Shown: positions 3,997-41,075 of the stretch, one piece after another | Numbering within the stretch: the stretch's first letter is position 1 | Layout: each line of letters opens with the position of its first letter | From: Acidobacteriota bacterium | GTDB taxonomy: Bacteria; Acidobacteriota; UBA890; WLXD01 | Assembly: GCA_965205505.1 (NCBI GenBank) | Contig: CBDBHB010000009.1 | Coordinates: 2,048,001 to 2,112,000 of the forward strand | DNA length: 64,000 nt | Direction: 5' to 3' | Notes under the pieces: generated by a model | What the model saw: the letters and a program-made list of their open reading frames with translations, nothing else | What the model was told of the DNA's origin: nothing | Database searches by the model: none | Made by a program: the position numbers and the translations under genes

Positions 3997-4117
3997 GGCT
4001 GGGCCACCCCGTCGCCTACATGAACTTGCGGCGCTTGAAGGTCGCCACGTCGGTGCTGCTCAACTCAAACCACCACTGTGATCGGAGGCTGCGGTAACTA
4101 CAAGGAGGTGCCTCCCG

Positions 4118-4146
4118 TGGACCCTCGCCCGCCCTGGCGATAGGCT
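4118..4146 (+). promoter_or_regulatory. Conserved kinase-family sigma70-like promoter, copy 1
   Basis: TGGACC-N17-TAGGCT upstream of the kinase ATG; shared with four other copies. Confidence 0.5.
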
Positions 4147-4179
4147 TCAGGCGCTCACCCACCCTGCCTCCGGAGCGCC

Positions 4180-6822
4180 ATGGAGCCCGGCACCCGATTA
4201 GGCCACTACGAGATCACCGAGCAGCTCGGTGCTGGCGGCATGGGCGAGGTGTACCTGGCGCAGGACACACGCCTGGGCCGCAAGGTGGCCATCAAGGTAC
4301 TGCCCGTCGAGTTCGCCTCTGATCCCGAGCGCCTCGCCCGCTTCGAGCAGGAGGCTCGTGCTGCCGCCGCACTGAACCACCCGTACATCGCAGCCGTTCA
4401 TGACGTGGGCGTCGAGGACGGCACGCACTTCATGGTGCAGGAGTACCTGGAGGGGGAGACGCTCCGCGAACCGTTAGGCAAGGGTGCGCTACCGCTCAAG
4501 AAGGCGCTCGGCTTGGCCACCGAGATCGCCGAGGCACTCGCTGCGGCACACGCCGCCGGGATCATCCACCGGGATCTGAAGCCGGAGAACATCTTCGTCA
4601 CCAAAGAGGGCCACGCCAAGGTGCTGGACTTCGGCCTGGCGAAGCTTACCGAGGTGGCGGGGGCAGGCTCACCGGGCGGTGCAACGCAGTCACCCACGAT
4701 GATGGGCACGGTGGCCGGTCAGGTGATGGGTACTGCCGGCTACATGGCCCCGGAGCAGGTAGAGGGCTCCGAGGAGATCGATCATCGGGCCGACCTGTTC
4801 GCTTTTGGCTGCGTGCTCTACGAGATGGTGGGCGGTAGGCGGCCCTTTGCCGGCACCAACGTGCACGAGACCCTGGGGCGCATCGTCGACAAGGATCCTG
4901 AGCCGCTGGCGGCGATCGACGCGCGCTTGCCCGTCGAAGTGCAGCGGATCGCCAAGAAGTGCCTGGCCAAGGAACCGGGACGGCGTTACCAGGGTGCAGC
5001 TGAGCTGGTCATTGACTTGCGGGCACTCGGAGCCGATGTCGAGTCGGGCACGGCCGTGCCGCTGGGCGGCCAGCCGGTTGTCGCTCCTGTCGCCGTGGAA
5101 ACGACGCGCGGCATCCCGTGGAAGCTGGGCGTCCCTGTGGGTGCCGCGCTCATGCTGGTGGCGGTTGCCACCTGGTGGACAATGCGACCGGAGCCCGGAA
5201 GCACCATCCGCCTGCAGCTCGACCCCCTCGTCGACACGATCATGAGTCGGTTCGGCTCCGCAGTCGCGTTATCGCCCGATGGACGGCACGTTGCCTACGT
5301 GGAGGGTGATCCGGCGTTAAGGACAGCGCTCCACCTTCGCGCTCTCGACCAGCAGAACTCGACGACGGTCGCGTCGGGGGACCTGGAGACAGGCGCTCCG
5401 TACCAGCCCTTCTTCTCGTCCGACGGACAATGGGTCGGGTTCGTCACGGCGACGGAGCTGAAAAAGGCGTCCATCACCGGAGGTACCGCCCAGTCGATCG
5501 CTGAGGTGAACCTGAGTCGAGGTGCGGACTGGGGTCCCGAAGATACGATCGTCTACACACCGAGTCCGACGAGCGGTTTGCTTCTGGTGTCGGCTGTCGA
5601 AGGCGATCCGCGACCCCTCACCGAGCTTGCCGAAGGCGAGTTCAGCCACCGCTGGCCCCAGTTTTTACCCGGCGGAAAGGCGGTGCTCTTCACGTCGGCC
5701 GGGACCAGAAGCTTCGACGGTGCCAACCTCGAGGTCGTGGATCTCGAGACCGGCGATCGCCAGGTCGTGCACCGGGGCGGCACCTACGGCCGATACGTGC
5801 CGACGGGCCACCTCGTGTATTCGAACGCCGGAGCGTTGTTCGCGGTGCCCTTCGACCTCGATACCCTCGAGACGACCAGCTCGCCGATACCCGTCGTCGA
5901 GAACCTCGCCGCCGGCCGTGATGGCGGGGTCTCGTTCGACTTCTCCGAGACCGGGATGCTCGTCTATCACATGGTCTATCACATGAGGAGTGGTGGCGAT
6001 TCGGGCGCATCCCAACTTGCCTGGGTGGATCGTAACGGCCAAGTCGAGCTGCTGCCCTTCGACCCGGGTTCGTCTCAGGGCTTGAACTTCTCGCCGGACG
6101 GGCAGCGCATCGCGCTCTCGATCCTGGGAGATGGTGGCCAGATGAACATCTGGATCTATGAGGTCGAACGAGGAGGCAGCCAGGTGCTGCTGACCACGGA
6201 GGGCAGCAACCTAATGCCCGTTTGGTCGCCCGATGGAGAGTGGGTGTTCTTCGCGTCGAATCGGGGTGGCAATTTCGACATCTGGAAGCGCCGGGCTGAC
6301 CAGAGTCTCGAAGTCGAACTGGTGTTGGAAGCAGAGGTTGCCGTGTCTCCAACGTCGATCTCGGCGGACGGTGCGCTGCTGTTTGCCAGCGGGTTCGTCA
6401 GCACGAACGCCGACGTGGGGATACTGGCTCTTGATACAAAGGAGTGGGAAATGCTCGTCGCTACCGCCGCCGATGAGCGTTGGGCCAGTTTCTCGCCGGA
6501 CGGTCGCTTCTTTGCCTTCCAGTCGAACGAGACGGGGCAATCCGGGGTGAACGTGCGGGAGGTGTCGAGTGGTCGGACATTTCCGGTCTCTACGAGTACC
6601 CGTGGTGGTGCCGTCCCTCGGTGGTCGCGGGATGGAAGGGAGATTTACTACTATGCCGTCGCCGGAGGCCCAGGCATCCTCGTTGCGGAAGTGGAAATGG
6701 AGCCGTTTTCCGCATCCGATCCTGTCGAACTTTCCGACATCGTCAAGCAGGGCCTGACTAACTTCGATGTCACTGCCGATGGCCAGAAGTTCTTGGTGAT
6801 TGTGCCCGCTCGTAGGGGGTGA
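4180..6822 (+). CDS. Ser/Thr kinase with TM helix and TolB-like/PD40 beta-propeller; native C-terminus frameshifted (runs to 6913)
   Basis: [21 protein letters not shown] and APE motifs; TM segment; SPDG repeats; family tail LNWFEELKQRVP lies in the +1 frame. Confidence 0.92.
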
Positions 6823-6912
6823 CCCTTCGGATACGGCTCCCGGCGCACGCATCAACTTCATCCTCAACTGGTTCGAGGAGCTGAAACAGCGCGTACCTAC
6901 GAACGGCTCCTG

Positions 6913-8247
6913 ATGGTCGGCAAGACGCTCGGCCACTACGAGATCCTCGCCCCGCTAGGTGAAGGCGGGATGGGCCAGGTGTATCGAGCACGCGATACGA
7001 CGCTGGATCGTGATGTCGCTATCAAGGTGCTGCCCGAGGATTTCGCCAGCGACGCGGGTCGGTTGGCGCGCTTCGAGCGCGAAGCAAAGCTGCTCGCTTC
7101 GCTGAGCCATCCCAACATCGCCACGATCTTCGGCTTCGAGGAATCGGATGGGGTGCGCTTCATCGCCATGGAGCTGGTGGAAGGCCAGAGCCTCGCCGAG
7201 CGCATCCAAGCTTCGGGTCGTATCGAGGTCGATGAGGCTCTGGAGATCGCCCGCCGGATCGCACTGGCGCTCGAAGCGGCTCATGAGGCCGGCGTCATCC
7301 ACCGTGACCTCAAGCCTGCCAACGTCCAGGTAGCACCCGATGGCACTGTGAAGGTGCTCGACTTCGGGCTGGCCAAAGCCTACGAAGCGGAAGGCAGTGA
7401 GCCGTCGTCCGACCTGAGCCACTCACCCACGATGATGGCTGCTACTGGCACCGGCGTGATCATGGGGACTGCTCCCTACATGAGCCCGGAGCAGGCGCGG
7501 GGTAAGCTCGTCGATAAGCGAAGCGACATCTGGTCGTTTGGGTGCGTGCTGTACGAGATGCTCGCCGGCAAGCGCGCCTTCGACGGCAGGACCGTCAGCG
7601 ACACGATGGCATCGATCCTCAAAGAGGAGCCGGATTGGACGGCTCTGCCGGAGACGACCTCCGCGATCATTCAGCTTCTGCTGCGGCAGTGCTTAGAGAA
7701 GGACGCTGATCGGCGACTCCACGACATCGCCGATGCGCGTATCGGTATCGTCAACACCATCGCCGATCCAGACGCGGATATCGCTCTGCTGGCTAGCTCT
7801 GTTGAGGCTGCGAAGCCGTCGTGGCGGCAAACCATCCCGACACCTGTGGCAGCCGGCCTTGGCCTCGCCATCGCAACAGCGACATTCCTCGCAGCCTGGG
7901 CCTCGATGGGCCAAGTATCGCCACCGTCAGTACCAACAATGCGCCTGGACGTGACGTTAACCAATCAGGATCTCTACCTCGGTCTTGGGTCAACACCCGT
8001 CTTGTCGCCGGATGGCTCGCACATCGCGTTCGTCACAGGAAACGCTAACGCTCAAAGCCAGCTGCACGTTCGCCTGCTCGCTCAGGCGGAGAGCACTCCC
8101 CTTCGTATCGGCGGTGTCTACGGGCCGTTCTTCTCCCCGGATGGCCAATGGGTGGGCTACTTCGATCTCCAGGAGGGGCTACAGAAAGTCTCTATCAGAG
8201 GCGGCGCACCCGTGCGGACGCCAAGACCGGTGACGGCTCCGGGCTGA
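6913..8247 (+). CDS. Ser/Thr kinase of the same family, truncated in the propeller at ~8212
   Basis: Complete kinase domain, TM and two SPDG repeats, then joined to a gltB fragment. Confidence 0.85.
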   Translation: MVGKTLGHYEILAPLGEGGMGQVYRARDTTLDRDVAIKVLPEDFASDAGRLARFEREAKLLASLSHPNIATIFGFEESDGVRFIAMELVEGQSLAERIQASGRIEVDEALEIARRIALALEAAHEAGVIHRDLKPANVQVAPDGTVKVLDFGLAKAYEAEGSEPSSDLSHSPTMMAATGTGVIMGTAPYMSPEQARGKLVDKRSDIWSFGCVLYEMLAGKRAFDGRTVSDTMASILKEEPDWTALPETTSAIIQLLLRQCLEKDADRRLHDIADARIGIVNTIADPDADIALLASSVEAAKPSWRQTIPTPVAAGLGLAIATATFLAAWASMGQVSPPSVPTMRLDVTLTNQDLYLGLGSTPVLSPDGSHIAFVTGNANAQSQLHVRLLAQAESTPLRIGGVYGPFFSPDGQWVGYFDLQEGLQKVSIRGGAPVRTPRPVTAPG

Positions 8248-8974: not shown

Positions 8975-9670
8975 CTAGTCAGAGCCGTCGCCTGTCTCCG
9001 GCATCTCGCGCTGGAACCGCCGATAGGTCGTCAGCCGGTTGGACTTGAGGGCCTCGAGCGCCGTGTCGAAGTCGTGCCGCTCGCTGGCGTCGAGGATCGC
9101 GTTGTGTTCGGCGATCGAGCGCGCCCAGTCACGCGGGTGGGTGATGAACGTCCACGTCTCCAGTCGTCGCACCGTCGCGCGCATGCTATCGAGCATCGTT
9201 TTGAGGTGCACGTTCTGTGACTGCTGCGAGAGGACCTGGTGGAAGCGGTCGTTCAGCTCGATGCCGGCCTCGAAATCGCTGCGACTAGCCGCTTCTGCAT
9301 AGGCGCGATTGATCGCGCGCAGCTCCTCGATGATCTCGGGCGAGAGTCGCCCAAAGGACTCACGGCCGGCAAGAACCTCGAGGGCAGCGAGAATCGGATA
9401 CAGCTCGACGAGGTCGGCGATCGATTCCTCCGGGACCCGGAAGCCGCGATGAGCGACCCGCTCCAGGAACCCCTCCGACGCCAGCCGTCCGAGCGCCTCA
9501 CGCACCGGCGTTCGGCTCACACCCAGCGCGTTGCTGATCTCCGGCTCGCGGACGAACTCTCCGGATGCCATCTTGCCGGCGAGCATGCGGTCGCGTAGCA
9601 GCCCATAGACCTGATCGGTGAGAGTCGCGGTTGTGATGCTGGGCCATGTCTTCGTGCCGACAACTTCCAT
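8975..9670 (-). CDS. GntR-family (FCD) transcriptional regulator
   Basis: LGVSRTPVREAL wHTH; FCD residues NDRFH and EH. Confidence 0.9.
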   Translation of the reverse strand: MEVVGTKTWPSITTATLTDQVYGLLRDRMLAGKMASGEFVREPEISNALGVSRTPVREALGRLASEGFLERVAHRGFRVPEESIADLVELYPILAALEVLAGRESFGRLSPEIIEELRAINRAYAEAASRSDFEAGIELNDRFHQVLSQQSQNVHLKTMLDSMRATVRRLETWTFITHPRDWARSIAEHNAILDASERHDFDTALEALKSNRLTTYRRFQREMPETGDGSD

Positions 9671-9934
9671 TCCATCCCCTGGCCGGGTGTGTCCGATCGC
9701 CTGCCCTGGCCGTGGCCGGAGCGTCGTGAGCAGAGACGCGATGCGTCTCGGATGCACCCGGGGACTCACCTCAGGCCGACCTGGATAATCTCTAGTACCC
9801 TGCACGGGAACTCTAGCATCGGCCAGCGCTACTGGCGCTCAAGTCCATAACTCTTGACCGAAACTCTGGGGCCCGGGCAGCGTGAAAGCCATTCGCTCCC
9901 AAGTCATCTCAGATTAATCAGGCTTGAGCACTCG

Positions 9935-11124: not shown

Positions 11125-11520
11125 TCAGGTAGTCTGACCCGGAAACGCGTAGTGTCGCTCGCGTCGGTACAGTCCCGGCGCAACGAACATCCAAACCTGG
11201 TAGATGATCACCGGAGACGCGACAAGGAACCCCGACAGCGCGGCGACCTTCAAATAGAGGATGAACGGCTCGGTAAGCGAAAGGTACGCGGGCCGTTCGT
11301 CGCTGGGGAGCAATTCGACAATCGGCCGGGTCAGAAGGCTGTAGATGTCCGCCGCGAACGCCCAGCACACCACCATCCCGATGACGAACGTCACCAAGCT
11401 GACGATGAGGCGTCGGCGGAGCTCGGTCAGGTGACCGAGCAACGTCATTTCCGGTAGTGTCTCGCTCCGGCCAGCTCCCGACTGGTCGGCGGCCATCGTC
11501 GCGCCTTCAGACTCGCTCAC
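11125..11520 (-). pseudogene. tatC: TatC, N-terminal half only
   Basis: EMTLLGHLTELRRRL and YQVWMFVAPGLYRRER; truncated at ~130 aa. Confidence 0.9.
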
Positions 11521-11561
11521 CGCGCGGTTACTCCGACCACTCGCTCAGTCGGTCCACCCGC

Positions 11562-11777
11562 TCAGTCAGTATCGCGAGATCCCGTCCGCTCGCTGCGGTG
11601 CTCATCGAGCGTGATCTCATCTTCAAGCGAGCGTTTCAGGTCGTTCGAGGCTCGTCGGAACTCACTCAGACCCTTGCCAATCGTGCGTCCCAGCTCCGGC
11701 AGACGCTTCGGGCCGAACACCACGAGCGCGATCACCAGGATGATGAGCAGCTCAGTGCCCCCGATCGAGCCGAACAT
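11562..11777 (-). CDS. tatA: Twin-arginine translocase TatA/TatB subunit
   Basis: MFGSIGGTELLIILVIALVVFGPKRLPELGR. Confidence 0.9.
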   Translation of the reverse strand: MFGSIGGTELLIILVIALVVFGPKRLPELGRTIGKGLSEFRRASNDLKRSLEDEITLDEHRSERTGSRDTD

Positions 11778-11879
11778 AATTTCCTCACGACGATTTTTCG
11801 AGACCGGATAGCGACATCATATTGGCCCTTGGGCTGTAGCGACACTCCCATCACGACCGGCGCTCGCGACGCTCGTCGG

Positions 11880-12259
11880 GGCGTTGGTGCATAGCTCCTG
11901 ATCTCAGTGCATCATCGTGGCAAGGTCCCCGATCTGGAGTTGCCACCCATGAAGTACCCGAAACGGAGCCAGTACAAGTACGCGAAGTCTCGATATCGGA
12001 TTCGCAATTGGCCTGAGTACGAGTCGGGCCGGCTACAGCAAGCGCGCCATGGTCGAGAACGCGATCTATCGATACAAGACGATCATCGCCCGAGACATGC
12101 GGAGTCGCACGTTGGTGGGCCAACGCGTGGAAGTGCGACTTGCGTGCAGGATCCTCAATACGATGGCTCGTCTCGGGATGCCCGACAGCTACCGAGTGGC
12201 GTGAACCCCTCTCGGAGGACGGGGAAGCTCCCCTTAGCTCCGAGCCATACACCAACGCC
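11880..12259 (+). mobile_element. IS5-family (IS903-like) internally deleted 380-bp mini-element
   Basis: IRs GGCGTTGGTGCATAGCTC / GAGCCATACACCAACGCC (16/18); Tpase N-terminus YRIRNWPEYE joined to C-terminus GYSKRAMVENAIYRYK...LNTMARLGMP. Confidence 0.85.
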
Positions 12260-12261
12260 AC

Positions 12262-14223
12262 TTAGATCCGCGGGAACCAGCCGTGGCGCATCTGCATGAG
12301 CTCTCCGACCGCGCGGTGCGCCTCGTCGAAGGCGGTCTGGGTGAGATCGATCCCCGAGGCATCGGTGTTGGCGATCGTGATCCGCCCGAAGGGCTGACTG
12401 GCGACCTTCCAGGGCTCCTCGCCGGGAGGCGACTCCGGATCGAACAGCGTGTTGGTCGCCAGGGCGTAGCCGTGCGGCCAGCGGTTCACGGTGATCGCCT
12501 CGATGTCGCGCGCCGGGTCGAAGCCCGCCGGCGACAGCACCCGCGCCATCTGGTCGCGGATCCGTCGTTCGAAGTCCTCGAAGGATGTCTCCAGGAGCGC
12601 TTGTCGCACCGCTCGCATCTGATCCCGAACCGGTGTGCCCGGGGGGATCGGCTCGCCGCGGCGTAGGCCGCGAACCATCGGCTCCCAGGAGAGCACCCCT
12701 CCACCATCCCCCAGCGAGACGACGATCGGGTCGGCGGGCGTGCGCGGTGGATCATAAGTCCCCAGCGTGATCGGTGCGCGAGGGCGGATGGCGCTGTAGA
12801 AAGAACCCGGACACGAAACGGTGGAGACGCCGAGCTCCTCGAATGCCCGCCAGTCGCGCACCAGGACGTTGGTGTACATCTGCACGGCGCGTGCGGCGAG
12901 GCTCAGCGCTTCCTTCTGCTCGGATGGAAGCTCGGGACACAGGTGCGGGATCATGGTGTGGTAGCAGGCCAGCACACAGCCCTTGCCGCGCACCCGGTAG
13001 GCTTTGCCACCGCGGACGTAGGTGATCTCGGTCTCGCGGGAGTCCGAGCTCAAGACCTGCGGTGGATTGCCGACATGCTGCGCGCGGACGGCGGCGCTGT
13101 TGAGCCGCAGACGCACGGGCGAGCGCGGCTCGTCGAGCTTCGAGTAGTCGGTTCGCCGGAGCTCGACGCTCGCCATCGATCCCGCTGGTAGGGCCGCCGG
13201 TATCAACGAGCGCACGATCATCCGCGCGATGTCGGAGTTGCCTGCCGGGAAATAGACGCCGGTGCCGTGGTCCGGGTGGGCCGGTGACTCCGGCGGAACC
13301 TCGAAGCCGAGCCCCTGGAAGCCCGGCAGGCTGCGATAGAGGGCGAACCACGCGCTCGAGGTATCGGCGCCCAAACACCAGACCCCGCCCACCAGCGGCA
13401 GCACGTCCGGATGCACTTGGACGACATCCAGCAGGTAGTCGTAGTAGCTGATGCGTTGCAGCCGTTGGATCTTCTCCTCGCGGGACAGCCCCGGCAGGTA
13501 GTCTCGCGCGTCGTTCCACAGCCGCAGTAGGTCGGCGCGCACCCGCTCGGTGAGCGGCGTGCGGGCGAGGAACTCCTCGGTGGGTCGGCGGACGCTGCCG
13601 GTGACCAGGGCATCCTTGCCGAAGCTCTCCTCGTGGAAGAAGACGGCCGTCTCGAGCCCCATGGACCGGAACATCCCCCGCTGCACGCTGCTGGTCGGAT
13701 GATCGAGCTCGACACCGATGTCCTCGAGCATCTCCCGCGCCGCCAGCGGATAGCGGTCGGGCTGCACCATGCGGACCGTGCCGCCGGTCGCCAGCAGCAC
13801 CTCGCCGTCGTGCTCGAACTCGTTGCGCCTGGCGTGGCCGCCAAAGTCGTCGTGATTCTCGAGGATCAGCACGCGGGCGTCAGGGCTCGTCGCCTTGCGG
13901 AAGAAGTACGCCGCCGCCAGACCGCTGAGGCCGGCGCCGACGACGATCAGGTCGTAGGTCTCGCCGGTGTCCTCGGCGTCATCCCACGTGACGCCGTCGC
14001 GGGCGGCGTGGGCCGCCTCGAACGAGCCGGGGTGCGATCCCCGCATGCCGGTTCGGGCCGGCGGATAGTAGTCGGCCGCCCGCTCGGGAGCATAGGCCTG
14101 GCCCATGCCCCCGGCGCGCAGTCTGGCCGGCAACGCCATCGCACCACCGACCGTGACGCTCACGCCGTTGACGAAGTCGCGCCGGGTGATGTTGCGGTTC
14201 ATCCCGAGGCCGCGGTCACTCAT
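12262..14223 (-). CDS. FAD-dependent oxidoreductase, spermidine dehydrogenase (SpdH)-like, Tat signal; copy A
   Basis: ITRRDFVNG Tat motif; YPPARTGMRGSHPGSFE, VGAGLSGL, NHDDFGGHARRNEF, ITVNRWPHGYA. Confidence 0.85.
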   Translation of the reverse strand: MSDRGLGMNRNITRRDFVNGVSVTVGGAMALPARLRAGGMGQAYAPERAADYYPPARTGMRGSHPGSFEAAHAARDGVTWDDAEDTGETYDLIVVGAGLSGLAAAYFFRKATSPDARVLILENHDDFGGHARRNEFEHDGEVLLATGGTVRMVQPDRYPLAAREMLEDIGVELDHPTSSVQRGMFRSMGLETAVFFHEESFGKDALVTGSVRRPTEEFLARTPLTERVRADLLRLWNDARDYLPGLSREEKIQRLQRISYYDYLLDVVQVHPDVLPLVGGVWCLGADTSSAWFALYRSLPGFQGLGFEVPPESPAHPDHGTGVYFPAGNSDIARMIVRSLIPAALPAGSMASVELRRTDYSKLDEPRSPVRLRLNSAAVRAQHVGNPPQVLSSDSRETEITYVRGGKAYRVRGKGCVLACYHTMIPHLCPELPSEQKEALSLAARAVQMYTNVLVRDWRAFEELGVSTVSCPGSFYSAIRPRAPITLGTYDPPRTPADPIVVSLGDGGGVLSWEPMVRGLRRGEPIPPGTPVRDQMRAVRQALLETSFEDFERRIRDQMARVLSPAGFDPARDIEAITVNRWPHGYALATNTLFDPESPPGEEPWKVASQPFGRITIANTDASGIDLTQTAFDEAHRAVGELMQMRHGWFPRI

Positions 14224-14230
14224 GGCCTTC

Positions 14231-15844
14231 TCAAGCGTGCGGTGCGATCTCGGTCATGTACCACTTGATAAATCCGGCCGGTCCCCCTTCTCGCCGGGCG
14301 TACGGTTGTCCGCCGGCGTGGTTGTAGCGGCTGTTCTGGATGCCGTGCTGGTTGTTCTCGACGATCCATCGATCCTCTCGGTAGGTGACGTCCCAGAGCT
14401 CCATCATGCGCTCCACGTCCACCTCTGCATCCTTGGCGTCGCCCTTGACCAGCCAGAAGATCTCGACATCGGTCGACTGTATGTCTCGTGGGGTGAAGCG
14501 GGCGACCGCGATGTGGTCGTCGTAGGCGGCGAAGAACGACGTCGAGAAACCGGTCGTTGCGCCGCGCCGCTGATGCGTCCACTTGTCGAGGATGAGCGGC
14601 GCCACCGGCTTGCCATCGAGGCTGCCGGTGACGAAGCCGGGTGAGAGATGGCGGGTCACCGTGTAGCTGCTCTGGCTCGCTTGCGGCGACTGCGTCTGCT
14701 CGAGCTGATCGCTGCCATGACAGAGGTGGCACGGCTCGCCCTCGCCGGCCTCCGGCTGTTGCTGCTCCGGGTGCTCGTGGCTCGCCACTTCCTCGTGGAG
14801 GTTGGCGATTTGCTCGGGGCTCATCACGTGCGCTTGCTGCCACCACTGGACCATCACCAACGACTTGTGCGCCGGCTCGCAGTGATAGCACTCCTCGAAG
14901 TTCTCGACCGCCATCTTCCAGTTCGCCTTCGTCGGGTACTGCTTGCGAGCTACTACTTTCAGATTCGCGGTTCCATAGAACTCGCAGACCCCTCGCCACC
15001 TGGTCACGAAGTCGTCGAAGCCCGCTGGTTCTTCGTCGGCCAGGTTGACGAAGATGAAGCCTTCGACCATCTGCACGTGGGCCGGGTGCAGGCCGTGCTG
15101 GTCTTGTTCGAACCCCTCTGGCATCCCGGTCGGCGCCGAGATCAGCTTGCCGTCGAGATCGTAGGTCCAGGCGTGATACGGGCAACGAAAGACCGCTGTG
15201 TTACCGCTCGGTCCTTGTTGGGCTACCGACAGCCGCGAGTCCACCGGCTTGCCGTCGAGCGTCGCCTCGCCCGGCAGGTCCTTGTCGAAACCGTGCAGGC
15301 AGAGCCGCGATCCGCGGTGTCGGCAGACGTTGTGGTAGGCCTTCACGGCACCGTCGTTGGCGCGCGTGATGATGAGGCTGCCGCCACGGCCGAACTCGAA
15401 GACGAAGTAGTCGCCCGGATTGGGAATGCGGCTCTCATGGTCGGCCATGAACCAGAAATGATCTTGCAGGAAGCGCTCTTCGTTCAGCCAGTGCTTCTCG
15501 TCGAGGTAGTACTCGGCCGGAATCGTGGTTCCTTCTTGCCACCCGCCCGGATAGCTGGGGGCCTCGCCGGGTGGCGACATGATGTCCTCCAGCAGCACAT
15601 CGCGACCGTCAAAATCCTCGCCGCCATACGTCACTTCGGGCGGCATCGTGATCGGACCCCGAGGTGCGGCTGCCGCGGCTTTTGCTGCTTCCGACGTTCC
15701 CTTCTCCGCTAACGTTTCACCACGCAGCACCTTGGGAAGCGCCACCGCGGCCGCTCCCGCCGCAACCGAAGTCTTGGCGAAGTCGCGACGGCTGACTTTC
15801 TTGCGCTCGGTGTCCTTGTTGTTCTTGCTGTCTCTCTTACTCAT
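14231..15844 (-). CDS. Rieske non-heme iron oxygenase alpha subunit (GbcA/choline monooxygenase-like), Tat signal; copy A
   Basis: SRRDFAK; CRH...CPYH Rieske ligands; NWK..ENFEECYHC...H and ED catalytic ligands. Confidence 0.9.
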   Translation of the reverse strand: MSKRDSKNNKDTERKKVSRRDFAKTSVAAGAAAVALPKVLRGETLAEKGTSEAAKAAAAAPRGPITMPPEVTYGGEDFDGRDVLLEDIMSPPGEAPSYPGGWQEGTTIPAEYYLDEKHWLNEERFLQDHFWFMADHESRIPNPGDYFVFEFGRGGSLIITRANDGAVKAYHNVCRHRGSRLCLHGFDKDLPGEATLDGKPVDSRLSVAQQGPSGNTAVFRCPYHAWTYDLDGKLISAPTGMPEGFEQDQHGLHPAHVQMVEGFIFVNLADEEPAGFDDFVTRWRGVCEFYGTANLKVVARKQYPTKANWKMAVENFEECYHCEPAHKSLVMVQWWQQAHVMSPEQIANLHEEVASHEHPEQQQPEAGEGEPCHLCHGSDQLEQTQSPQASQSSYTVTRHLSPGFVTGSLDGKPVAPLILDKWTHQRRGATTGFSTSFFAAYDDHIAVARFTPRDIQSTDVEIFWLVKGDAKDAEVDVERMMELWDVTYREDRWIVENNQHGIQNSRYNHAGGQPYARREGGPAGFIKWYMTEIAPHA

Positions 15845-16019
15845 GCCACCCTCGTGCGGCTAGCGGACAGGACGTCTAGGCCCCTGTATGCAAGCACAGG
15901 TGAAATGCCTTTACCATGGGGTCTGTCAAGTCAACGACATGTTTGTCAGATTCCCGAGGCAACGAACCTCTGTCGCCGCCAGCCCCGCGTCGATCGCTCA
16001 CTACGTGGCTCGTTTTCGG

Positions 16020-16332
16020 GGTCCCCTGAGAGGCCGATCTCCCGGAACTTGGCGGCCAGCCACTCGGCGCTCTCCGCATCGGCGGACGTGCCGGTGATCG
16101 GGCCCCAGAACTGCGGATGCCCCCGGTCTCGATACCGCCTTGATATCTCGGCCTGCTCCACGACGTGCTGATGGAGACGCCGGCCGTCGATGTCCGCGTA
16201 CGCCTCGGCGCCGGACGGTAGCGGCCATCGCAGCAACGAATCCTGCAGGTCGTCCAGCGTCGTCGGAGTACTCTCTGATGGCCGGGTACCGGCCTGTCCC
16301 GAGCACGCCGCTGCTGACACTATGAAGGCCAC
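16020..16332 (-). pseudogene. N-terminal fragment of a lipoprotein, probably M28 peptidase-like
   Basis: SAAAC lipobox-like; WG.ITGT.AD.ESAEWLAAKFREIGL then breaks at the duplication junction. Confidence 0.5.
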
Positions 16333-16479
16333 GAACGTCGCCGTTACCCGCGAAACGTGCCCATCGCACCCAATTCACGTCGGGTCACTGTTGTGCACAC
16401 GGAGCCCTCCCGCGATGCGGCGCGACGTGTGGGTGTCCTAATCGTGTGGCTGGATTGTTCAGTTGCTATCGATGCTGAC

Positions 16480-18444
16480 TCAGATCCGCGGGAACCACCC
16501 ATGGCGCATCTGCACGAGCTCTCCGACCGCGCGGTGCGCCTCGTCGAAGGCGGTCTGGGTGAGATCGATCCCCGAGGCATCGGTGTTGGCGATCGTGATC
16601 CGCCCGAAGGGCTGACTGGCGACCTTCCAGGGCTCCTCGCCGGGAGGCGACTCCGGATCGAACAGCGTGTTGGTCGCCAGGGCGTAGCCGTGCGGCCAGC
16701 GGTTCACGGTGATCGCCTCGATGTCGCGCGCCGGGTCGAAGCCCGCCGGCGACAGCACCCGCGCCATCTGGTCGCGGATCCGTCGTTCGAAGTCCTCAAA
16801 GGATGTCTCCAGGAGCGCTTGTCGCACCGCTCGCATCTGATCCCGAACCGGTGTGCCCGGGGGGATCGGCTCGCCGCGGCGTAGGCCGCGAACCATCGGT
16901 TCCCAGGAGAGCACCCCTCCGCCAGCCCCCAGCGAGACGACGATCGGGTCGGCGGGCGTGCGCGGTGGATCATAAGTCCCCAGCGTGATCGGTGCGCGAG
17001 GGCGGATGGCGCTGTAGAACGAGCCCGGACACGAAACGCTGGAGACGCCGAGCTCCTCGAGTGCCCGCCAGTCGCGCACCAGGACGTTGGTGGACATATT
17101 CACGGCGCGTGCGGCGAGGCTCAGCGCTTCCTTCTGCTCGGATGGAAGCTCGGGACACAGGTGCGGGATCATGGTGTGGTAGCAGGCCAACACACAGCCC
17201 TTGCCGCGCACCCGGTAGGCCTTGCCACCGCGGACGTAGGTGATCTCGGTCTCGCGGGAGTCCGAGCTCAAGACCTGCGGTGGATCGCCGACATGCTGCG
17301 CGCGGACGGCGGCGCTGTTGAGCCGCAGACGCACGGGCTGGTGCGGCTCGTCAAGCTTCGAGTAGTTGGTTCGCCGGAGCTCGACGCTCGCCATCGATCC
17401 CGCTGGTAGGGCCGCCGGGATCAACGAGCGCACGATCATCCGCGCGATGTCGGAGTTGCCGGCCGGGAAGTAGACGTCGGTGGTGTCGTGGTCCGGGTGG
17501 GCCGGTGACTCCGGCGGAACCTCGAAGCCGAGCCCCTGGAAGCCCGGCAGGCCGCGATAGAGGGCGAACCACGCGCTCGAGGTATCGGCGCCCAGACACC
17601 AGACCCCACCAACCAGCGGCAGCACGTCCGGATGCACTTGGACGACATCCAGCAGGTAGTCGCGGTAGCTGATGCGTTGAAGCCGCTGGATCTTCTCCGC
17701 CCTGGACAGCCCCGGCAGATAGTCGCGCCGGTCGTTCCAGAGCCGCAGCAGGTCCCGGCGTATCGGCTCAGTGAGCGGCGTCTTGGCGAGGAACTCCTCC
17801 GTGGGTCGCCGGACGCTGCCGTTGACCAGGACGTCCTTCCCGAAGCTCTCCTTGCCAAAGAAAACGGCTGGCTCCAGCCCCAACTCCCTGAACATCCCTC
17901 GATGGACGTTGTTGGTAGGATGATCCAGCTCGACACCGATATCCTGGAGCATCTCCCGCGCCGCCAGCGGGTAGCGCTCCGGCGTCACCATGTAAGACGT
18001 GCCGCCGGTCGCCAGCAGCACCTCGCCGTCGTGCTCGAACTCGTTGCGCCTGGCGTGGCCGCCAAAGTCGTCGTGATTCTCGAGGATCAGCACGCGGGCG
18101 TCAGGGCTCGTCGCCTTGCGGAAGAAGTACGCCGCCGCCAGACCGCTGAGGCCGGCGCCGACGACGATCAGGTCGTAGGTCTCGCCGGTGTCCTCGGCGT
18201 CATCCCACGTGACGCCGTCGCGGGCGGCGTGGGCCGCCTCGAACGAACCGGGGTGCGAGCCGCGCATACCGGTACGGGCCGGCGGGTAATAGTCGGTTGC
18301 CTTCTCGGGGGCGTGGGCCTGGCTGACGCCTGCGGCGCGAAGCCTGGCCGGCAAGGCCATCGCACCGCCGACAGCGACGCTCACGCCGTTGACGAAGTCG
18401 CGCCGGGTGATATTGCGGTCCATTCCGAGTCCACGATCGCGCAT
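16480..18444 (-). CDS. FAD-dependent oxidoreductase, SpdH-like, Tat signal; copy B
   Basis: Same motifs as 12262-14223. Confidence 0.85.
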   Translation of the reverse strand: MRDRGLGMDRNITRRDFVNGVSVAVGGAMALPARLRAAGVSQAHAPEKATDYYPPARTGMRGSHPGSFEAAHAARDGVTWDDAEDTGETYDLIVVGAGLSGLAAAYFFRKATSPDARVLILENHDDFGGHARRNEFEHDGEVLLATGGTSYMVTPERYPLAAREMLQDIGVELDHPTNNVHRGMFRELGLEPAVFFGKESFGKDVLVNGSVRRPTEEFLAKTPLTEPIRRDLLRLWNDRRDYLPGLSRAEKIQRLQRISYRDYLLDVVQVHPDVLPLVGGVWCLGADTSSAWFALYRGLPGFQGLGFEVPPESPAHPDHDTTDVYFPAGNSDIARMIVRSLIPAALPAGSMASVELRRTNYSKLDEPHQPVRLRLNSAAVRAQHVGDPPQVLSSDSRETEITYVRGGKAYRVRGKGCVLACYHTMIPHLCPELPSEQKEALSLAARAVNMSTNVLVRDWRALEELGVSSVSCPGSFYSAIRPRAPITLGTYDPPRTPADPIVVSLGAGGGVLSWEPMVRGLRRGEPIPPGTPVRDQMRAVRQALLETSFEDFERRIRDQMARVLSPAGFDPARDIEAITVNRWPHGYALATNTLFDPESPPGEEPWKVASQPFGRITIANTDASGIDLTQTAFDEAHRAVGELVQMRHGWFPRI

Positions 18445-18528
18445 ACCTATTCCTCGAGTCAGCGCGCCCCTTCGGTTGTGAGCTTCAGAGCACGCCTGCG
18501 GTGATGGACCAAGCGAACGGAGGCCGGC

Positions 18529-20061
18529 TTACGCGTGCGTTGCGATCTCGGTCATGTACCACTTGATGAATCCGGCCGGTCCCCCTTCTCGCGTGGCGTA
18601 CGGTTGCCCGCCGCCGTAGTTGTAGCGACTGTTCTGGATGCCGTGCTGGTTGTTCTCGACGATCCATAGATCCTCTCGGTAGGTGACGTCCCAGAGCTCC
18701 ATCATGCGCTCCACGTCCACCTCTGCATCCTTGGCGTCGCCCTTGACCAGCCAGAAGATCTCGACATCGGTCGACTGTATGTCTCGTGGGGTGAAGCGGG
18801 CAACCGCGATGTGGTCGTCGTAGGCGGCGAAGAACGACGTCGAGAAACCGGTCGTTGCGCCGCGCCGCTGATGCGTCCACTCGTCGAGGATGAGCGGCGC
18901 CACCGGCTTGCCATCGAGGCTGCCGGTGACGAAGCCGGGTGAGAGGTGGCGGTTCATCGTGTAGCTGCTCTGGTTCGCGTTGTCCTGTTGCCGCTCCAAG
19001 TGCTCGTGGCTCACCAGTTCCTGCTCGAGGTTGGCGCGTTGCTCGGGGGTCATCACGTGCGCTTGCTGCCACCACTGGACCATCACCAACGACTTGTGCG
19101 CCGGCTCGCAGTGATAGCACTCCTGGAAGTTCTCGACCGCCAGCTTCCAGTTCGCCTTCGTCGGGTACTGCTTGCGAGCTACTACTTTCAGATTCGCGGT
19201 TCCATAGAACTTGGAGACCCCTCGCCACCTGGTCACGAAGTCGTCGAAGCCCGCTGGTTCTTCGTCGGCCAGGTTGACGAAGATGAAGCCTTCGACCATC
19301 TGCACGTGGGCCGGGTGCAGGCCGTGCTGGTCTTGTTCGAACCCCTCCGGCATCCCGGTCGGCAGCGAGATCAGCTTGCCGTCGAGATCGTAGGTCCAGG
19401 AGTGATACGGGCAACGAAAGACCGCTGTGTTACCGCTCGGTCCCTGTTGGGCTACCGACAGCCGCGAGTCCACCGGCTTGCCGTCGAGCGTCGCCTCGCC
19501 CGGCAGGTCCTTGTCGAAACCGTGCAGGCAGAGCCGCGATCCGCGGTGTCGGCAGACGTTGTGGTAGGCCTTCACGGCACCGTCGTTGGCGCGCGCGATG
19601 ATGAGGCTGCCGCCACGGCCGAACTCGAAGACGAAGTAGTCGCCCGGACTGGGAATGCGGCTCTCATGGTCGGCCATGAACCAGAAATGATCTTGCAGGA
19701 AGCGCTCTTCGTTCAGCCAGTGCTTCTCGTCGAGGTAGTACTCGGCCGGAATCGTGGTTCCTTCTTGCCACCCGCCCGGATAGCTGGGGGCCTCGCCGGG
19801 TGGCGACATGATGTCCTCCAGCAGCACATCGCGACCGTCAAAATCCTCGCCGCCATACGTCACTTCGGGCGGCATCGTGATCGGACCCCGAGGTGCGGCT
19901 GCCGCGGCTTTTGCTGCTTCCGACGTTCCCTTCTCCGCTAACGTTTCACTACGCAGCGCCTTGGGAAGCGCCACCGCAGCTGCTCCTGCCGCAACCGAAG
20001 TCTTGGCGAAGTCACGACGGCTGACCTTCTTTCGCTTGTTCTCCTTTTTGTTCTTGCTCAT
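18529..20061 (-). CDS. Rieske oxygenase alpha subunit, Tat signal; copy B
   Basis: Same motifs as 14231-15844 but lacks the 23-aa insert. Confidence 0.9.
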   Translation of the reverse strand: MSKNKKENKRKKVSRRDFAKTSVAAGAAAVALPKALRSETLAEKGTSEAAKAAAAAPRGPITMPPEVTYGGEDFDGRDVLLEDIMSPPGEAPSYPGGWQEGTTIPAEYYLDEKHWLNEERFLQDHFWFMADHESRIPSPGDYFVFEFGRGGSLIIARANDGAVKAYHNVCRHRGSRLCLHGFDKDLPGEATLDGKPVDSRLSVAQQGPSGNTAVFRCPYHSWTYDLDGKLISLPTGMPEGFEQDQHGLHPAHVQMVEGFIFVNLADEEPAGFDDFVTRWRGVSKFYGTANLKVVARKQYPTKANWKLAVENFQECYHCEPAHKSLVMVQWWQQAHVMTPEQRANLEQELVSHEHLERQQDNANQSSYTMNRHLSPGFVTGSLDGKPVAPLILDEWTHQRRGATTGFSTSFFAAYDDHIAVARFTPRDIQSTDVEIFWLVKGDAKDAEVDVERMMELWDVTYREDLWIVENNQHGIQNSRYNYGGGQPYATREGGPAGFIKWYMTEIATHA

Positions 20062-20173
20062 ACCATCCTCCGGCAGCCAAGACGTTCAGATACCTGTATA
20101 CAAGCATAGATGAAGCGCCATTACCATGGGGTCTGTCAAAAGTCAACGAACCTTCTGGCAGAGGTTTTCGGGG

Positions 20174-20192
20174 TTTGGGTCAATTTGGGTCA
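20174..20192. repeat. TTTGGGTCA direct repeat, 10-bp period (integrase arm-site-like)
   Basis: TTTGGGTCA-A-TTTGGGTCA at the junction between two cargo blocks. Confidence 0.5.
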
Positions 20193-20197
20193 GGCCG

Positions 20198-20261
20198 TTG
20201 ACAGAGGTTGCTGTGCGGTGCTAGTAACACCTTCTGAAGGTGCTAGTATCACCTTCTGAAG
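20198..20261 (+). promoter_or_regulatory. Promoter and operator-like repeats of the TonB receptor
   Basis: TTGACA at 20198; two tandem 22-bp units GTGCTAGTAWCACCTTCTGAAG; palindrome CACCTTC-T-GAAGGTG at 20228-20242. Confidence 0.6.
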
Positions 20262-20326
20262 CATTAGTCAATTCAATGTCGGGCGACGCCGTTGCCCCGG
20301 GTGACGAGTTGCCCAGGAGGTGTGGA

Positions 20327-23209
20327 ATGCGCGCCAAGCTTGCCGTCTTGACTGTTGCCATGCTCCTGATACTCCCCGCGCAGGCGATGGCGCAGGGTGA
20401 GCGGACGCAGGGGGATATCGCCGGAGTGGTTCGGGACGTGGATGGTGCGGGGCTGCCCGGCGCCACCGTCACCCTCGAGGGAGACAACCTCATCCAGGTA
20501 TCTGTCTCGAAGGTAAGCGACGTCTCGGGCAACTTCCGGTTTCGTAATCTCAGGCCGGGAATGTACATCGTCACGGTCTCGCTCACCGGGTTCCAAACGA
20601 TAGCCTACAACGTCCCGGTGAACGTCGGCACGGCGTCAACCGTGATTGCGGAACTGGAGCTGGCGGGGGTCGCAGAGACGGTCACAGTCGTCTCCGAGAC
20701 GCCGTTGATCGACATAGAGTCGGCATCGCTTACGACGTCATACGGCGCGGATCTGCTGGAAAACGTTCCGGTGGCGCGTGAGTTCGCCAACATGACCGAC
20801 TTCGCCGCTGGTTTCGCCGACAAGGGAGCCTATGGCGCCGGCGGCAACCACTCCGAGGGCACTAGCGTGCATCGGCAAGGTGCCGCAACCAACGGCTACC
20901 GGCTCAACGGCGTTGACATCAACGAGCTGGACTGGGGTCTCACCTTTGTCAACCCGAACGTGGAGACGATCGCCGAGATCCAGATTGTCGGTATCGGCGC
21001 CAGCGCCGAGTACAGCCACTTCACTGGCGCGATGGTCAATATTGTGACCAAGGGGGGCACCAACGCGTTTCATGGCTCGGGCTCTTACTACTGGCAGAAC
21101 GGCTCTCTGAGAACCGACAACTCGCGCGGCATCGTGGATCTCGAGCGCGGAAAGTTCTCCTACGACCGCGAGGTTGCCGCCTCTGTCGGTGGCCCGATTG
21201 CGCGCAACAAGCTGCTGTTCTTTGCCGGTGTCTCCCGTCAAGAAAAGCGCGATTCGATTGCCGCCGACTCGTTCTGGGAGAACGGTGGAATCGCCGTCGA
21301 TGATGCCCAGCAGGGTAACGCTAGGTGGGCACTGCACGGCAAGCTGGATTTCTTGGTCAACGACACCAACACGTTCGGGTTCATGATCAACCAGGATCCG
21401 GGCGGCCAGTCGAACATCGACCTGCGACCAGGTTCGCCGCTCGACGTCGCCATGGATACCGAGTACAGCAGCACGACCGCGTTGTTCACCTGGCAATCCC
21501 AACTGGGCGACAACACCTTCACCGATCTCCGCCTCGCATACAATAGGGCGGACTTCTTGCGCATCCCGCTCGTGTGCTGCGACATCCCGGATTACTGGTT
21601 CAACAATTCGCGGAGGCTCACCCGTGGCTTCGTGGAGGACGAGGACAACGCCTCGAAAAATGTCACGGCAACGGTGACCCAGTACGTCGACGACTTCCTG
21701 GGCGCCGCGCATGACGTCAAGGTCGGTATCGACTACAACGACCTTTGGTCCACCTGGATTGCTAAGATTACCGGTAGAGGGGCCATGTATGCCTATGGCT
21801 CCGGTAACGTATATGGGCGTATCTCCAACCGTGGCCTCGAGGCCCGAATGCTACGCCACTCGGCCTTTATCCAGGATAACGCTACCGCTAGCGACAACCT
21901 CACCCTCAACCTCGGGCTGCGCTTTGACCGGACGACCGGTTACGACATGAAGGGTGGGGTGGTTGGGGCTCAGGTAGACAGGTACGACAACTTGGCGCCA
22001 CGCCTTGGTGCAACCTTGGATGTGAGCGGTGATGGCCGTGCCGTGTTCCATGGCAGCTGGGGGCGCTACTTCGAGAAGATCTCCATCGGACACGTCTCGA
22101 GAGCCACCGGCGGCGCGTTCACGGACCCATACGAACCCAACCAGAGGTTCTTCTTCGCAATACCTGACGGTATGTTCCCTGCCGACTACGACCCCCTCAA
22201 CCCGACCGACGTGCAAGTGTTAGCGCTGCAAGACGCTGTCTTCCAACTCGCGAACCGGACTTCGTTCAACGCCGATATCTTTCCGATCACCCCCGGCTTG
22301 AAGTCGACGCACACGGATGTCTTCAATTTCGGATTCGAGTATGAATTAGTCAGGGACTGGGTCGTGGGTCTCGACTACATCCGCAAAGATGACAAAAACA
22401 TGTTCATCTACAACGACATCATTGACCATGTGTTTACGCCCTTCGAATACACCAGCCCGGTGGTGCCCGGATTCCTCGATACGCCGACGACGCAGACGCT
22501 CTACTCGAAACCCAGCGGCGCTATCGAGAACGTCTTCGATAACAGCGACTACTATGTGCGGTGGCACAACATCGTGACGCTGTCGCTGGACCGACGGCGA
22601 ACGGGTTCCGGCCTCAACTTCAGCACCTCGCTCACCTACCAGAACAACGAGGGAAGGATAGAGAATGGCGACGGCCAGACCATCTGGGGTAGGGGCTTCG
22701 ACGAAGAAGACAACCCGAACTTCAACGGCCACCCCTTCTCCGAGTCGGGTCCGTTGCGCTTCAGCAGGACGTGGAGCTGGAAGATACTGGGCAACTACAG
22801 GCTGCCCGGAGACATCCTCTTGGGTATGTACTGGAACTTGGCGTCGGGTCGGCCGTGGAACCTCAAGGTCAGGCACGGATCCAGGGGGATTCCCCAATTG
22901 CTCAACGCCGCCTACGGCAGCACAAACATCGAGAAGGTTCGCAGCAGGCGGTGGGATTCGCATAAGCAGCTCGATCTGCGGCTCTCGAAGTCCTTTAATT
23001 TTGGGAATGGCCGGTTCGAGTTGATGGTCGACGGGTTCAACATGCTCAACGACTTCTCCCCGACCAGCGTCAGAGATCGAATCGACCGAACGTTCAGCCT
23101 TGAGCGCGACGCCGAAGGCAACAGACTCTCCAGCGTCGGGCTGCCCCGCGACTCTACACGTCTGCTGCCCGGGCGGCAGTTTCGGCTCGGGGCACGACTT
23201 TCCTTCTGA
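20327..23209 (+). CDS. TonB-dependent receptor (Oar-like, carboxypeptidase-regulatory N-domain)
   Basis: AGGAGG RBS; signal peptide; LPGATVTL; NIVTKGGTNAFHG; LTLNLGLRFD; terminal RLSF. Confidence 0.92.
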   Translation: MRAKLAVLTVAMLLILPAQAMAQGERTQGDIAGVVRDVDGAGLPGATVTLEGDNLIQVSVSKVSDVSGNFRFRNLRPGMYIVTVSLTGFQTIAYNVPVNVGTASTVIAELELAGVAETVTVVSETPLIDIESASLTTSYGADLLENVPVAREFANMTDFAAGFADKGAYGAGGNHSEGTSVHRQGAATNGYRLNGVDINELDWGLTFVNPNVETIAEIQIVGIGASAEYSHFTGAMVNIVTKGGTNAFHGSGSYYWQNGSLRTDNSRGIVDLERGKFSYDREVAASVGGPIARNKLLFFAGVSRQEKRDSIAADSFWENGGIAVDDAQQGNARWALHGKLDFLVNDTNTFGFMINQDPGGQSNIDLRPGSPLDVAMDTEYSSTTALFTWQSQLGDNTFTDLRLAYNRADFLRIPLVCCDIPDYWFNNSRRLTRGFVEDEDNASKNVTATVTQYVDDFLGAAHDVKVGIDYNDLWSTWIAKITGRGAMYAYGSGNVYGRISNRGLEARMLRHSAFIQDNATASDNLTLNLGLRFDRTTGYDMKGGVVGAQVDRYDNLAPRLGATLDVSGDGRAVFHGSWGRYFEKISIGHVSRATGGAFTDPYEPNQRFFFAIPDGMFPADYDPLNPTDVQVLALQDAVFQLANRTSFNADIFPITPGLKSTHTDVFNFGFEYELVRDWVVGLDYIRKDDKNMFIYNDIIDHVFTPFEYTSPVVPGFLDTPTTQTLYSKPSGAIENVFDNSDYYVRWHNIVTLSLDRRRTGSGLNFSTSLTYQNNEGRIENGDGQTIWGRGFDEEDNPNFNGHPFSESGPLRFSRTWSWKILGNYRLPGDILLGMYWNLASGRPWNLKVRHGSRGIPQLLNAAYGSTNIEKVRSRRWDSHKQLDLRLSKSFNFGNGRFELMVDGFNMLNDFSPTSVRDRIDRTFSLERDAEGNRLSSVGLPRDSTRLLPGRQFRLGARLSF

Positions 23210-40996: not shown

Positions 40997-41075
40997 ATCA
41001 GTGCTCCCGCTCGTAGCTACTAGGTCGCCTCACAAGACCCATGCGCGCCACCCCTCCTATTCCTCGTACAGGCCT

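Follow-up and report, generated by a model that had tools for sequence, protein, structure and literature searches.

A 64,000-nucleotide stretch of the genome of an Acidobacteriota bacterium (assembly GCA_965205505.1, contig CBDBHB010000009.1, positions 2,048,001 to 2,112,000; hereafter the window) contains two tandem cassettes, each encoding a Rieske non-heme iron oxygenase α subunit and an SpdH-like flavin adenine dinucleotide (FAD)/heme b amine dehydrogenase. The four minus-strand open reading frames (ORFs) fully occupy positions 12262-20061 (Table 1). The window is a clean instance of this arrangement, with two intact cassettes and the SpdH-like gene as the sole partner of the oxygenase. 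We give about an even chance to the proposal that each cassette is a two-enzyme, NAD(P)H-independent, amine-degrading module of the periplasm, in which the flavocytochrome feeds the oxygenase. The features on which the proposal draws, namely domain make-up, cofactor ligands, twin-arginine translocation (Tat) signals, operon arrangement, co-inheritance, and periplasmic neighbors, are read directly from the sequence.

Both oxygenases match the Pfam Rieske domain (PF00355; 48.6-48.9 bits, cut-off 20.3) and the Ring_hydroxyl_A domain (PF00848; 87-95 bits, cut-off 24.9). C170, H172, C217, and H220 are the predicted ligands of the [2Fe-2S] cluster, E314 is the bridging residue, and H317, H322, and D464 are the predicted ligands of the mononuclear iron. 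All of these residues, together with R15, R16, and F18, are invariant in an alignment of 20 sequences sharing 52-94% identity, so the complete iron-sulfur and mononuclear iron sites described in an earlier note on this DNA are confirmed in all 20 homologs. E314, H317, H322, and D464 also align with the same motifs in the structures 3n0q and 3vca. By sequence, the PDB entries closest to them are the uncharacterized 3n0q, Stc2 (3vca), which is a stachydrine demethylase, and CntA (6y8j), which is a carnitine monooxygenase, with E values of 2.8e-44 to 5.7e-28. The top NCBIfam model is GbcA (NF058607, an equivalog model), but the scores of 220.5 and 223.3 bits fall below its cut-off of 670. Judged by these scores, the window proteins are therefore not GbcA.

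The window proteins share with 3n0q and the GbcA/Stc2/CntA group the Rieske plus Ring_hydroxyl_A architecture, the absence of a β subunit, and the CxH...CxxH and E-x3-E-x2-H-x4-H...D ligands. They differ from the group by a Tat signal, by an N-terminal extension, and by an insert of 17-27 residues between the two pairs of cluster ligands. The extension comprises about 55 conserved residues ahead of the canonical fold, among which W98, E100, T103, P105, Y108, and Y109 are invariant. Their gene neighbors also differ, being periplasmic heme proteins, with no reductase found by Pfam among the ORFs scanned.

These traits mark a clade. A tree of Rieske proteins was built from 99 rows, comprising 72 Tat-type rows after removal of duplicates and every third non-Tat row. 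The Tat-type proteins form a single clade of 74 rows with an SH-aLRT support of 100. Two nominally non-Tat rows inside the clade are a contig-cut ORF and a miss of the regular expression. The placement of the oxygenase in one clade within the GbcA/Stc2/CntA group is thus well supported by the sequences. All 79 Tat-type rows have 34-44 residues between the ligand pairs, versus 16-18 residues in 73 of the 82 others. The remaining nine share the spacing of the clade (34 or 42) and probably belong to it, their ORFs being called from a wrong start or cut at a contig end; five such loci were inspected. The region between the ligand pairs is the donor docking site of Rieske oxygenases. In an AlphaFold2 model of Rieske A, with a mean predicted local distance difference test score (pLDDT) of 70.4, the cluster-adjacent insert (residues 171-211) scores below 50, too low for a structural reading.

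The clade appears to be exported. A Tat signal was recognized by a motif of the form S/T-R-R-x-F-L-K, followed by 12 or more uncharged residues as the h-region and by a basic c-region. By sequence inspection, the Rieske and the SpdH-like proteins all carry such signals. The Rieske N terminus consists of a lysine-rich n-region, the motif SRRDFAK, the 13-residue uncharged stretch TSVAAGAAAVALP, and a basic c-region of the form K..R, with TLA/EK as our guess at the cleavage site in Rieske A. The SpdH-like N terminus contains the motif TRRDFVN within ITRRDFVNG, followed by the 14 uncharged residues GVSVAVGGAMALPA and R.R. R14, R15, D16, and F17 are invariant in an alignment of 17 SpdH-like sequences. 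In the alignments of both families, the linkers that follow the signals vary in length and sequence.

The signal recurs among the relatives. The window's genome, of 6 Mb, encodes 19 Rieske paralogs (at least 200 bits) and 28 SpdH-like paralogs (at least 300 bits). Seventeen of these Rieske proteins have the Tat motif, the exceptions being a truncated copy and a 412-residue cytoplasmic-type protein. Among the SpdH-like paralogs, the regular expression matches 24 of 28. Four of these matches fall on chance RR pairs, in two of which the genuine SpdH-like motif lies just further along. Two of the four misses have KRRDF or LRRDF, and one ORF begins past the signal. Of 75 metagenome loci fetched by a clade-specific motif, 67 hold a Rieske homolog, and the regular expression finds a Tat motif in 60 of them. 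The other seven are three cuts at contig ends, one miss of the regular expression, one over-long ORF, and two loci seemingly without the motif (L118, 6596-8218, and L148, 5813-7435). The latter are separate records of an identical ORF that starts just ahead of W-x-EGTTIP, apparently without a signal peptide, and is surrounded by SpdH-like, amidohydrolase, and pyrroloquinoline quinone (PQQ)/cytochrome c genes. This member could possibly be exported as a hitchhiker or be a decayed copy.

The occurrence of the Tat motif is, on sequence grounds, far beyond chance. In addition, the signal of the window's SpdH-like proteins is homologous to that of P. aeruginosa SpdH (PaSpdH, PA3713), which is tabulated among experimentally validated Tat substrates in PMC6085387. 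The cassette proteins are thus predicted to be exported, and a periplasmic location is well supported. The earlier note had proposed Tat signals on both oxygenases, a co-exported partner, and a periplasmic system; the clade-wide motif, the homology to PA3713, and the periplasmic and outer-membrane neighbors described below all agree with that proposal.

Other Rieske proteins take the route predicted here. That of arsenite oxidase is Tat-exported. Those of bc1 complexes are likewise [2Fe-2S] proteins that are assembled in the cytoplasm and then exported by Tat (PMC6085387). Unlike the window proteins, however, both are electron carriers without a mononuclear-iron oxygenase domain, and the bc1 Rieske signal stays uncleaved as a membrane anchor.

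The partner enzyme resembles PaSpdH from end to end. The match to the PaSpdH structure 7d9j spans residues 11-643 of 654 with an E value of 1.7e-121, and the FAD dinucleotide-binding motif is present. According to PMC12564564, PaSpdH contains FAD and a surface-exposed heme b liganded by His54 and His562, passes electrons from FAD to heme b, and requires an external acceptor. Counting along the alignment, these histidines correspond to H72 and H585, which are invariant in 17 of 17 aligned SpdH-like proteins sharing 30-93% identity. The SpdH-like identity assigned in the earlier note is borne out by the full-length match and by both heme ligands. The window proteins differ from PaSpdH (PDB 7d9f-7d9j) in two respects. 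Their genes share an operon with a Rieske oxygenase, and each is one of 28 paralogs in its genome, a number that argues for varied substrates. No natural acceptor for PaSpdH is named in the literature covered, outside of which lies the structural paper (DOI 10.1111/febs.16264).

The association of the two genes was assessed in Tat-type rows from the window, the genome, and the metagenome loci. Eighty rows were flagged, including one false positive of the regular expression and several overlapping or near-identical rows. Twenty-eight of the 80 have too little flanking sequence, leaving 52 usable, and adjacency was limited to 3 kb. An SpdH-like gene lies within this distance of 21 of the 52 Tat-type Rieske genes versus none of 81 non-Tat rows. 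A small CxxCH protein, a monoheme cytochrome c by Pfam, is encoded directly downstream in 12 of the 52, and a cytochrome c is found beside one of the 81 non-Tat rows; three Tat-type rows have both partners. In other Tat-type subclades, the small cytochrome c takes the place of the SpdH-like gene.

In the window's own subclade, an SpdH-like gene is directly downstream in five of five rows. Another genome of the same genus (G118) has three cassette copies, with both genes adjacent in all. Across the Rieske tree, SpdH adjacency has changed at least six times, and both gene orders are found. Four groups of adjacent pairs form clades that correspond between the Rieske tree and the SpdH tree. Other neighbors of Tat-type genes identified by Pfam include PQQ dehydrogenases (seven loci), TonB-dependent receptors, amidohydrolases, peptidases, and a formaldehyde-activating enzyme. 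Fifteen loci combine a Tat-type Rieske gene with a neighboring homolog of the window's TonB-dependent receptor, with several of these loci being pieces of shared contigs; no cytoplasmic-type gene has such a neighbor.

The earlier note had also reported no reductase or ferredoxin gene nearby. In agreement, Pfam detects no oxygenase reductase or free ferredoxin in 32 window ORFs between 1360 and 49011, where the sole 2Fe-2S domain lies within SoxA. The same holds for 137 ORFs from 13 paralog loci and one cytoplasmic-type locus of the window's genome, and for 65 hand-picked neighbors out of 126 at the metagenome loci. An NAD(P)H reductase donor was thus not found among the scanned neighbors, unlinked reductases elsewhere in the genome not being searched for. 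A strict regular expression for FNR/Fer2 reductases was dropped, as it matched 1 of 75 at cytoplasmic-type loci, and was replaced by the Pfam check.

In the proposed pathway, the TonB-dependent receptor encoded divergently from the cassettes would be the probable route of the substrate across the outer membrane. The SpdH-like flavocytochrome would oxidize a C-N bond of an amine and transfer two electrons from FAD to the surface-exposed, bis-His heme b. The heme would reduce the [2Fe-2S] cluster of the Tat-exported oxygenase, directly or via a small carrier. The mononuclear iron would then activate O2 and hydroxylate or N-dealkylate a second, probably related amine that is beyond the flavoenzyme's reach, for example an N-methylated or quaternary amine. 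Amine dehydrogenation would thereby yield the two electrons that the oxygenase needs per turnover. It is plausible that the flavocytochrome supplies the oxygenase with electrons; we infer the direction and directness of this transfer, together with the substrate and the reaction.

A broader reading is more tentative and has somewhat less than an even chance in our estimate. The entire Rieske clade may have moved out of the cytoplasm and be run by heme proteins, with the flavocytochrome and the oxygenase forming a redox-neutral couple. Electrons from dehydrogenating one C-N bond would pay for the O2-dependent attack on another. In one possible order, the oxygenase would demethylate a quaternary amine, and the resulting tertiary amine would then be dehydrogenated. 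The clade-specific insert beside the [2Fe-2S] cluster would serve as a heme-docking site. Other members of the clade have other candidate heme donors, with a monoheme cytochrome c encoded in the 12 rows mentioned above and in one sampled genome (G038), and with the PQQ dehydrogenases of seven loci.

Precedents exist for such a chain. Cellobiose dehydrogenase (CDH) feeds lytic polysaccharide monooxygenase (LPMO). The window's cassettes would be alike in that an extracytoplasmic FAD/heme b enzyme hands electrons to a separate metal oxygenase without NAD(P)H. The CDH-LPMO pair differs in being fungal and secreted, in its copper acceptor, in belonging to unrelated families, and in placing the heme on a distinct, tethered domain. 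PMC12564564 counts CDH among the flavocytochromes b. The step from heme b to a Rieske center has a parallel in CMP-N-acetylneuraminic acid hydroxylase (CMAH), a Rieske-type monooxygenase that takes electrons from cytochrome b5 (PMC9219854). The CMAH system, unlike the one proposed here, is eukaryotic and cytosolic and still depends on NAD(P)H through b5 reductase. CMAH also has an unrelated catalytic domain.

Several points weigh against electron transfer within the cassettes. Rieske clusters of oxygenases usually lie near -0.15 V versus the standard hydrogen electrode (SHE). The electrode onset of PaSpdH is -0.14 V versus Ag/AgCl (PMC12564564), roughly +0.06 V versus SHE by our own conversion. 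Transfer would therefore be uphill unless the cluster of this clade is tuned. A complex prediction with Rieske residues 102-507 and SpdH-like residues 52-643, made for a Rieske monomer from separate alignments and without heme, FAD, or cluster, gave a score of 0.00 against a mark of 0.32, which speaks neither for binding nor against it. Binding and electron transfer between the partners are what we infer, not what we observe. The lack of a linked reductase is weak evidence, because reductase-like genes make up only 2-3 of the 26 immediate neighbors considered at 20 cytoplasmic-type loci.

The pairing is also facultative, not universal. The conserved pairing expected in the earlier note is found in the window's subclade and in three other co-diverging lineages, but not throughout. 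Twenty-two of the 52 Tat-type Rieske genes have neither an SpdH-like nor a cytochrome c neighbor. In the window's genome, 11 of the 19 Rieske paralogs have no SpdH-like neighbor within 3 kb; conversely, 21 of the 28 SpdH-like paralogs lack a Rieske gene within that distance. SpdH-like genes occur in 18 of 151 sampled genomes of the phylum, 14 of them without the Rieske clade. G038 has the Rieske clade, no SpdH match, and an overlapping cytochrome c gene. A 1455-residue frame in G038 was rejected as a Rieske fusion, being an over-long ORF followed by the overlapping cytochrome c gene. Finally, many of the counted loci are near-copies or kin, and the counts therefore overstate their independence.

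Such observations are consistent with a second reading, which we regard as unlikely but the most serious competitor. Both enzymes would be periplasmic and serve one catabolic route without forming a redox couple. The SpdH-like enzyme would deliver its electrons via the general cytochrome c pool to the respiratory chain, and the oxygenase would be reduced by that pool or by an unlinked periplasmic donor. The stand-alone Tat-type Rieske genes favor this reading, since a donor in trans must exist for those, as do the dedicated cytochrome c of other subclades and the SpdH-like genes in genomes lacking the Rieske clade. PaSpdH also reduces cytochrome c in vitro (PMC12564564). However, none of the 19 Rieske paralogs in the window's genome has a candidate c-type cytochrome gene (CxxCH) within 3 kb, and SpdH-like proteins are the only recurrent heme-bearing neighbors there. 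Moreover, the two genes have stayed together while duplicating and diverging in four lineages, and they do so in either order. Compared with heme b, typical cytochromes c are of higher potential and would therefore be poorer reductants.

It is highly improbable that the N-terminal motifs are not functional export signals and that the oxygenase, as is the case for GbcA, Stc2, and CntA, stays in the cytoplasm and draws on an NAD(P)H reductase encoded elsewhere. The frequent lack of an adjacent reductase among the cytoplasmic relatives would fit such a reading, but the partner's homolog is a validated Tat substrate (PMC6085387). In addition, the motif, the h-region, and the basic c-region are kept in about 70 diverged sequences, whereas the linker that follows varies freely. 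The signal arose once, with the clade, and the neighbors are periplasmic or outer-membrane proteins such as cytochromes c, PQQ dehydrogenases, and TonB-dependent receptors.

Rieske oxygenases are able to turn over with H2O2, and a flavin amine oxidase of the classical, full-length type is encoded 0.8 kb downstream of one Rieske paralog of the window's genome (locus L082). A peroxide shunt, in which H2O2 from such an oxidase or from slow turnover of the flavoenzyme with O2 would drive the mononuclear iron without an electron donor, is nevertheless scarcely credible: SpdH is a dehydrogenase whose acceptor is heme b rather than O2 (PMC12564564), conservation of the [2Fe-2S] ligands and of the insert next to the cluster is strict and would be needless without electron entry, and the cytochrome c partners elsewhere point to electron delivery.

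Full-length relatives in named genome records come in five of five cases from metagenome-assembled genomes of Acidobacteriota. Among the 151 sampled genomes of the phylum, five contain the clade, belonging to the window's genus (three of three, in addition to the window's own genome) and one other family. Within the window's genome, where both families have multiplied strongly, some paralogs occur in arrays, such as C9:3097689-3114223, C8:1145335-1151540, and C8:504296-512377. One array holds two Rieske and five SpdH-like genes inside 17 kb; another has three Rieske genes and one SpdH-like gene, after which come genes for an amidohydrolase and for a PQQ/cytochrome c dehydrogenase. The SpdH-like paralog at C9:3097689-3099473 has an in-frame TGA, its longest ORF lacks the N-terminal signal, and it is probably a pseudogene.

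Several single paralogs have other surroundings. L082 (7386-11191; C8:350385-354190) contains a stand-alone Tat-type Rieske gene, and the oxidase downstream (PF01593, E = 2.4e-87) is not SpdH-like. A near-identical copy of this Rieske gene, L083, lies beside a phage-type integrase. At L085 (C9:3123000-3140000), a Rieske paralog with an SpdH-like fragment downstream adjoins an Oxidored_FMN/Pyr_redox_2 enzyme, which we take to be trimethylamine-dehydrogenase-like. The locus also encodes an aldehyde dehydrogenase, a glutamine-synthetase-like protein, and a transglutaminase-like protein, and looks like an amine-catabolic neighborhood.

The two cassettes of the window are a recent tandem duplication. 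Positions 12260-15829 and 16478-20058 share 94-97% nucleotide identity, and G069, of the same genus, has only one cassette at the corresponding place. Because of this duplication there are two SpdH-like genes, one per cassette, whereas the earlier note named a single SpdH-like operon partner; the family was right. The 517-residue M28-like peptidase, of which a fragment remains in the spacer between the cassettes, sits after a third cassette copy elsewhere in the genome. The two Rieske proteins are 90-94% identical, and Rieske B has an extra insert of 27 residues in a variable region (window 14684-14755, residues about 363-390). The insert contains CHLCH, which matches the heme c attachment motif CxxCH. 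This match is taken as chance because the stretch is variable and not conserved in homologs. Synonymous divergence (dS) is 0.146 between the SpdH copies, with a nonsynonymous to synonymous ratio (dN/dS) of 0.28. Between the Rieske copies dS is 0.047 and dN/dS is 0.73, with changes clustered at residues 338-370. This unequal divergence points to gene conversion or to a duplicate of mosaic origin.

The earlier note placed tatA and tatC next to the cassettes. The tatA gene is intact there, but tatC is a fragment and probably a pseudogene; two full-length tatC genes lie elsewhere in the genome. In G069, homology to the window stops inside the tatC fragment and is followed by a pair of IS3-type transposase genes (L171, 14700-16300). 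tatC is thus disrupted differently in the two genomes, and tatA is intact in both. A PHROGs scan of five ORFs around the tatC fragment gave no matches.

The suggestion that the cassettes supply a sarcosine oxidase does not hold. The SoxBDAG genes (36912-42350) lie 17 kb from the cassettes, and the unrelated genes in between encode a receptor, TPR proteins, a sulfatase, a molybdoenzyme, and a kinase fragment. Cytoplasmic GbcA-like genes have strong homologs of Sox and DMGDH-like genes as neighbors, and no Tat-type locus besides the window has either.

A scan of 11500-20400 found no promoter-like sites and five terminator-like sites, versus 4.1 expected. In the RNA libraries of two studies, contigs extend over Rieske A and the receptor gene, and one contig bridges the Rieske/SpdH junction. 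These contigs are a weak hint of expression of the locus, since their cover is partial, DNA carry-over is possible, and they give no view of transcript ends, strand, or level. Genes for several Ser/Thr protein kinases lie at 2752-8247 and 33188-33850, two of them with PD40 β-propeller repeats. The copy at 33188-33850 is short and probably truncated, and the kinases seem unrelated to the cassettes. A protein of about 700 residues recurs upstream of orthologous cassettes (L081, 3625-5736; L097, 9275-11374; L116, 753-2894; L119, 2657-4756), in the position taken in the window by the TonB-dependent receptor. It has no Pfam match in the three copies scanned (L081, L097, and L119), and the L081 copy has a Sec-type signal and a GDSHVH motif.

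Table 1. Features in and around the two cassettes (window positions).
Feature	Position	Strand	Remarks
GntR/FCD-family regulator	8975..9805	-	possible regulator of the locus
tatC fragment	11125..11520	-	covers profile positions 2-97 of 208
tatA	11562..11777	-	71 aa; Pfam TatA_B_E; intact
SpdH-like FAD/heme b dehydrogenase, copy B (P0001)	12262..14223	-	653 aa; 93% identity to copy A
Tat motif, SpdH-like B	14167-14187	-	
Rieske oxygenase α subunit, copy B (P0002)	14231..15844	-	537 aa
Tat motif, Rieske B	15773-15793	-	
Inter-cassette spacer	15845..16479	-	635 bases
ORF inside spacer	15946-16332		fragment of M28-like peptidase, residues 23-124 of 517
SpdH-like FAD/heme b amine dehydrogenase, copy A (P0003)	16480..18444	-	654 aa
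Tat motif, SpdH-like A (TRRDFVN)	18388-18408	-	
Rieske non-heme iron oxygenase α subunit, copy A (P0004)	18529..20061	-	510 aa
Tat signal, Rieske A	19936..20061	-	residues 1 to about 42; SRRDFAK at 20002-20022
TonB-dependent receptor with CarboxypepD_reg domain	20240..23209	+	divergent from Rieske A; probable outer-membrane entry of substrate

To our knowledge, all Rieske oxygenases studied so far are found in the cytoplasm or the plastid and take their electrons from NAD(P)H or ferredoxin. A full-text literature search found nothing on an exported Rieske oxygenase or on a Rieske-SpdH pair. If the proposal is true, the exported clade with its heme donors would represent a new class of electron supply for the Rieske oxygenase family, and SpdH-type flavocytochromes would gain a natural acceptor. 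The pair would parallel, in the bacterial periplasm, the CDH-LPMO system of fungi, and a reductase-free, amine-driven oxygenase may be of use in biocatalysis and biosensors. For the organisms themselves, it would show that diderm soil bacteria oxygenate nitrogen compounds ahead of import.

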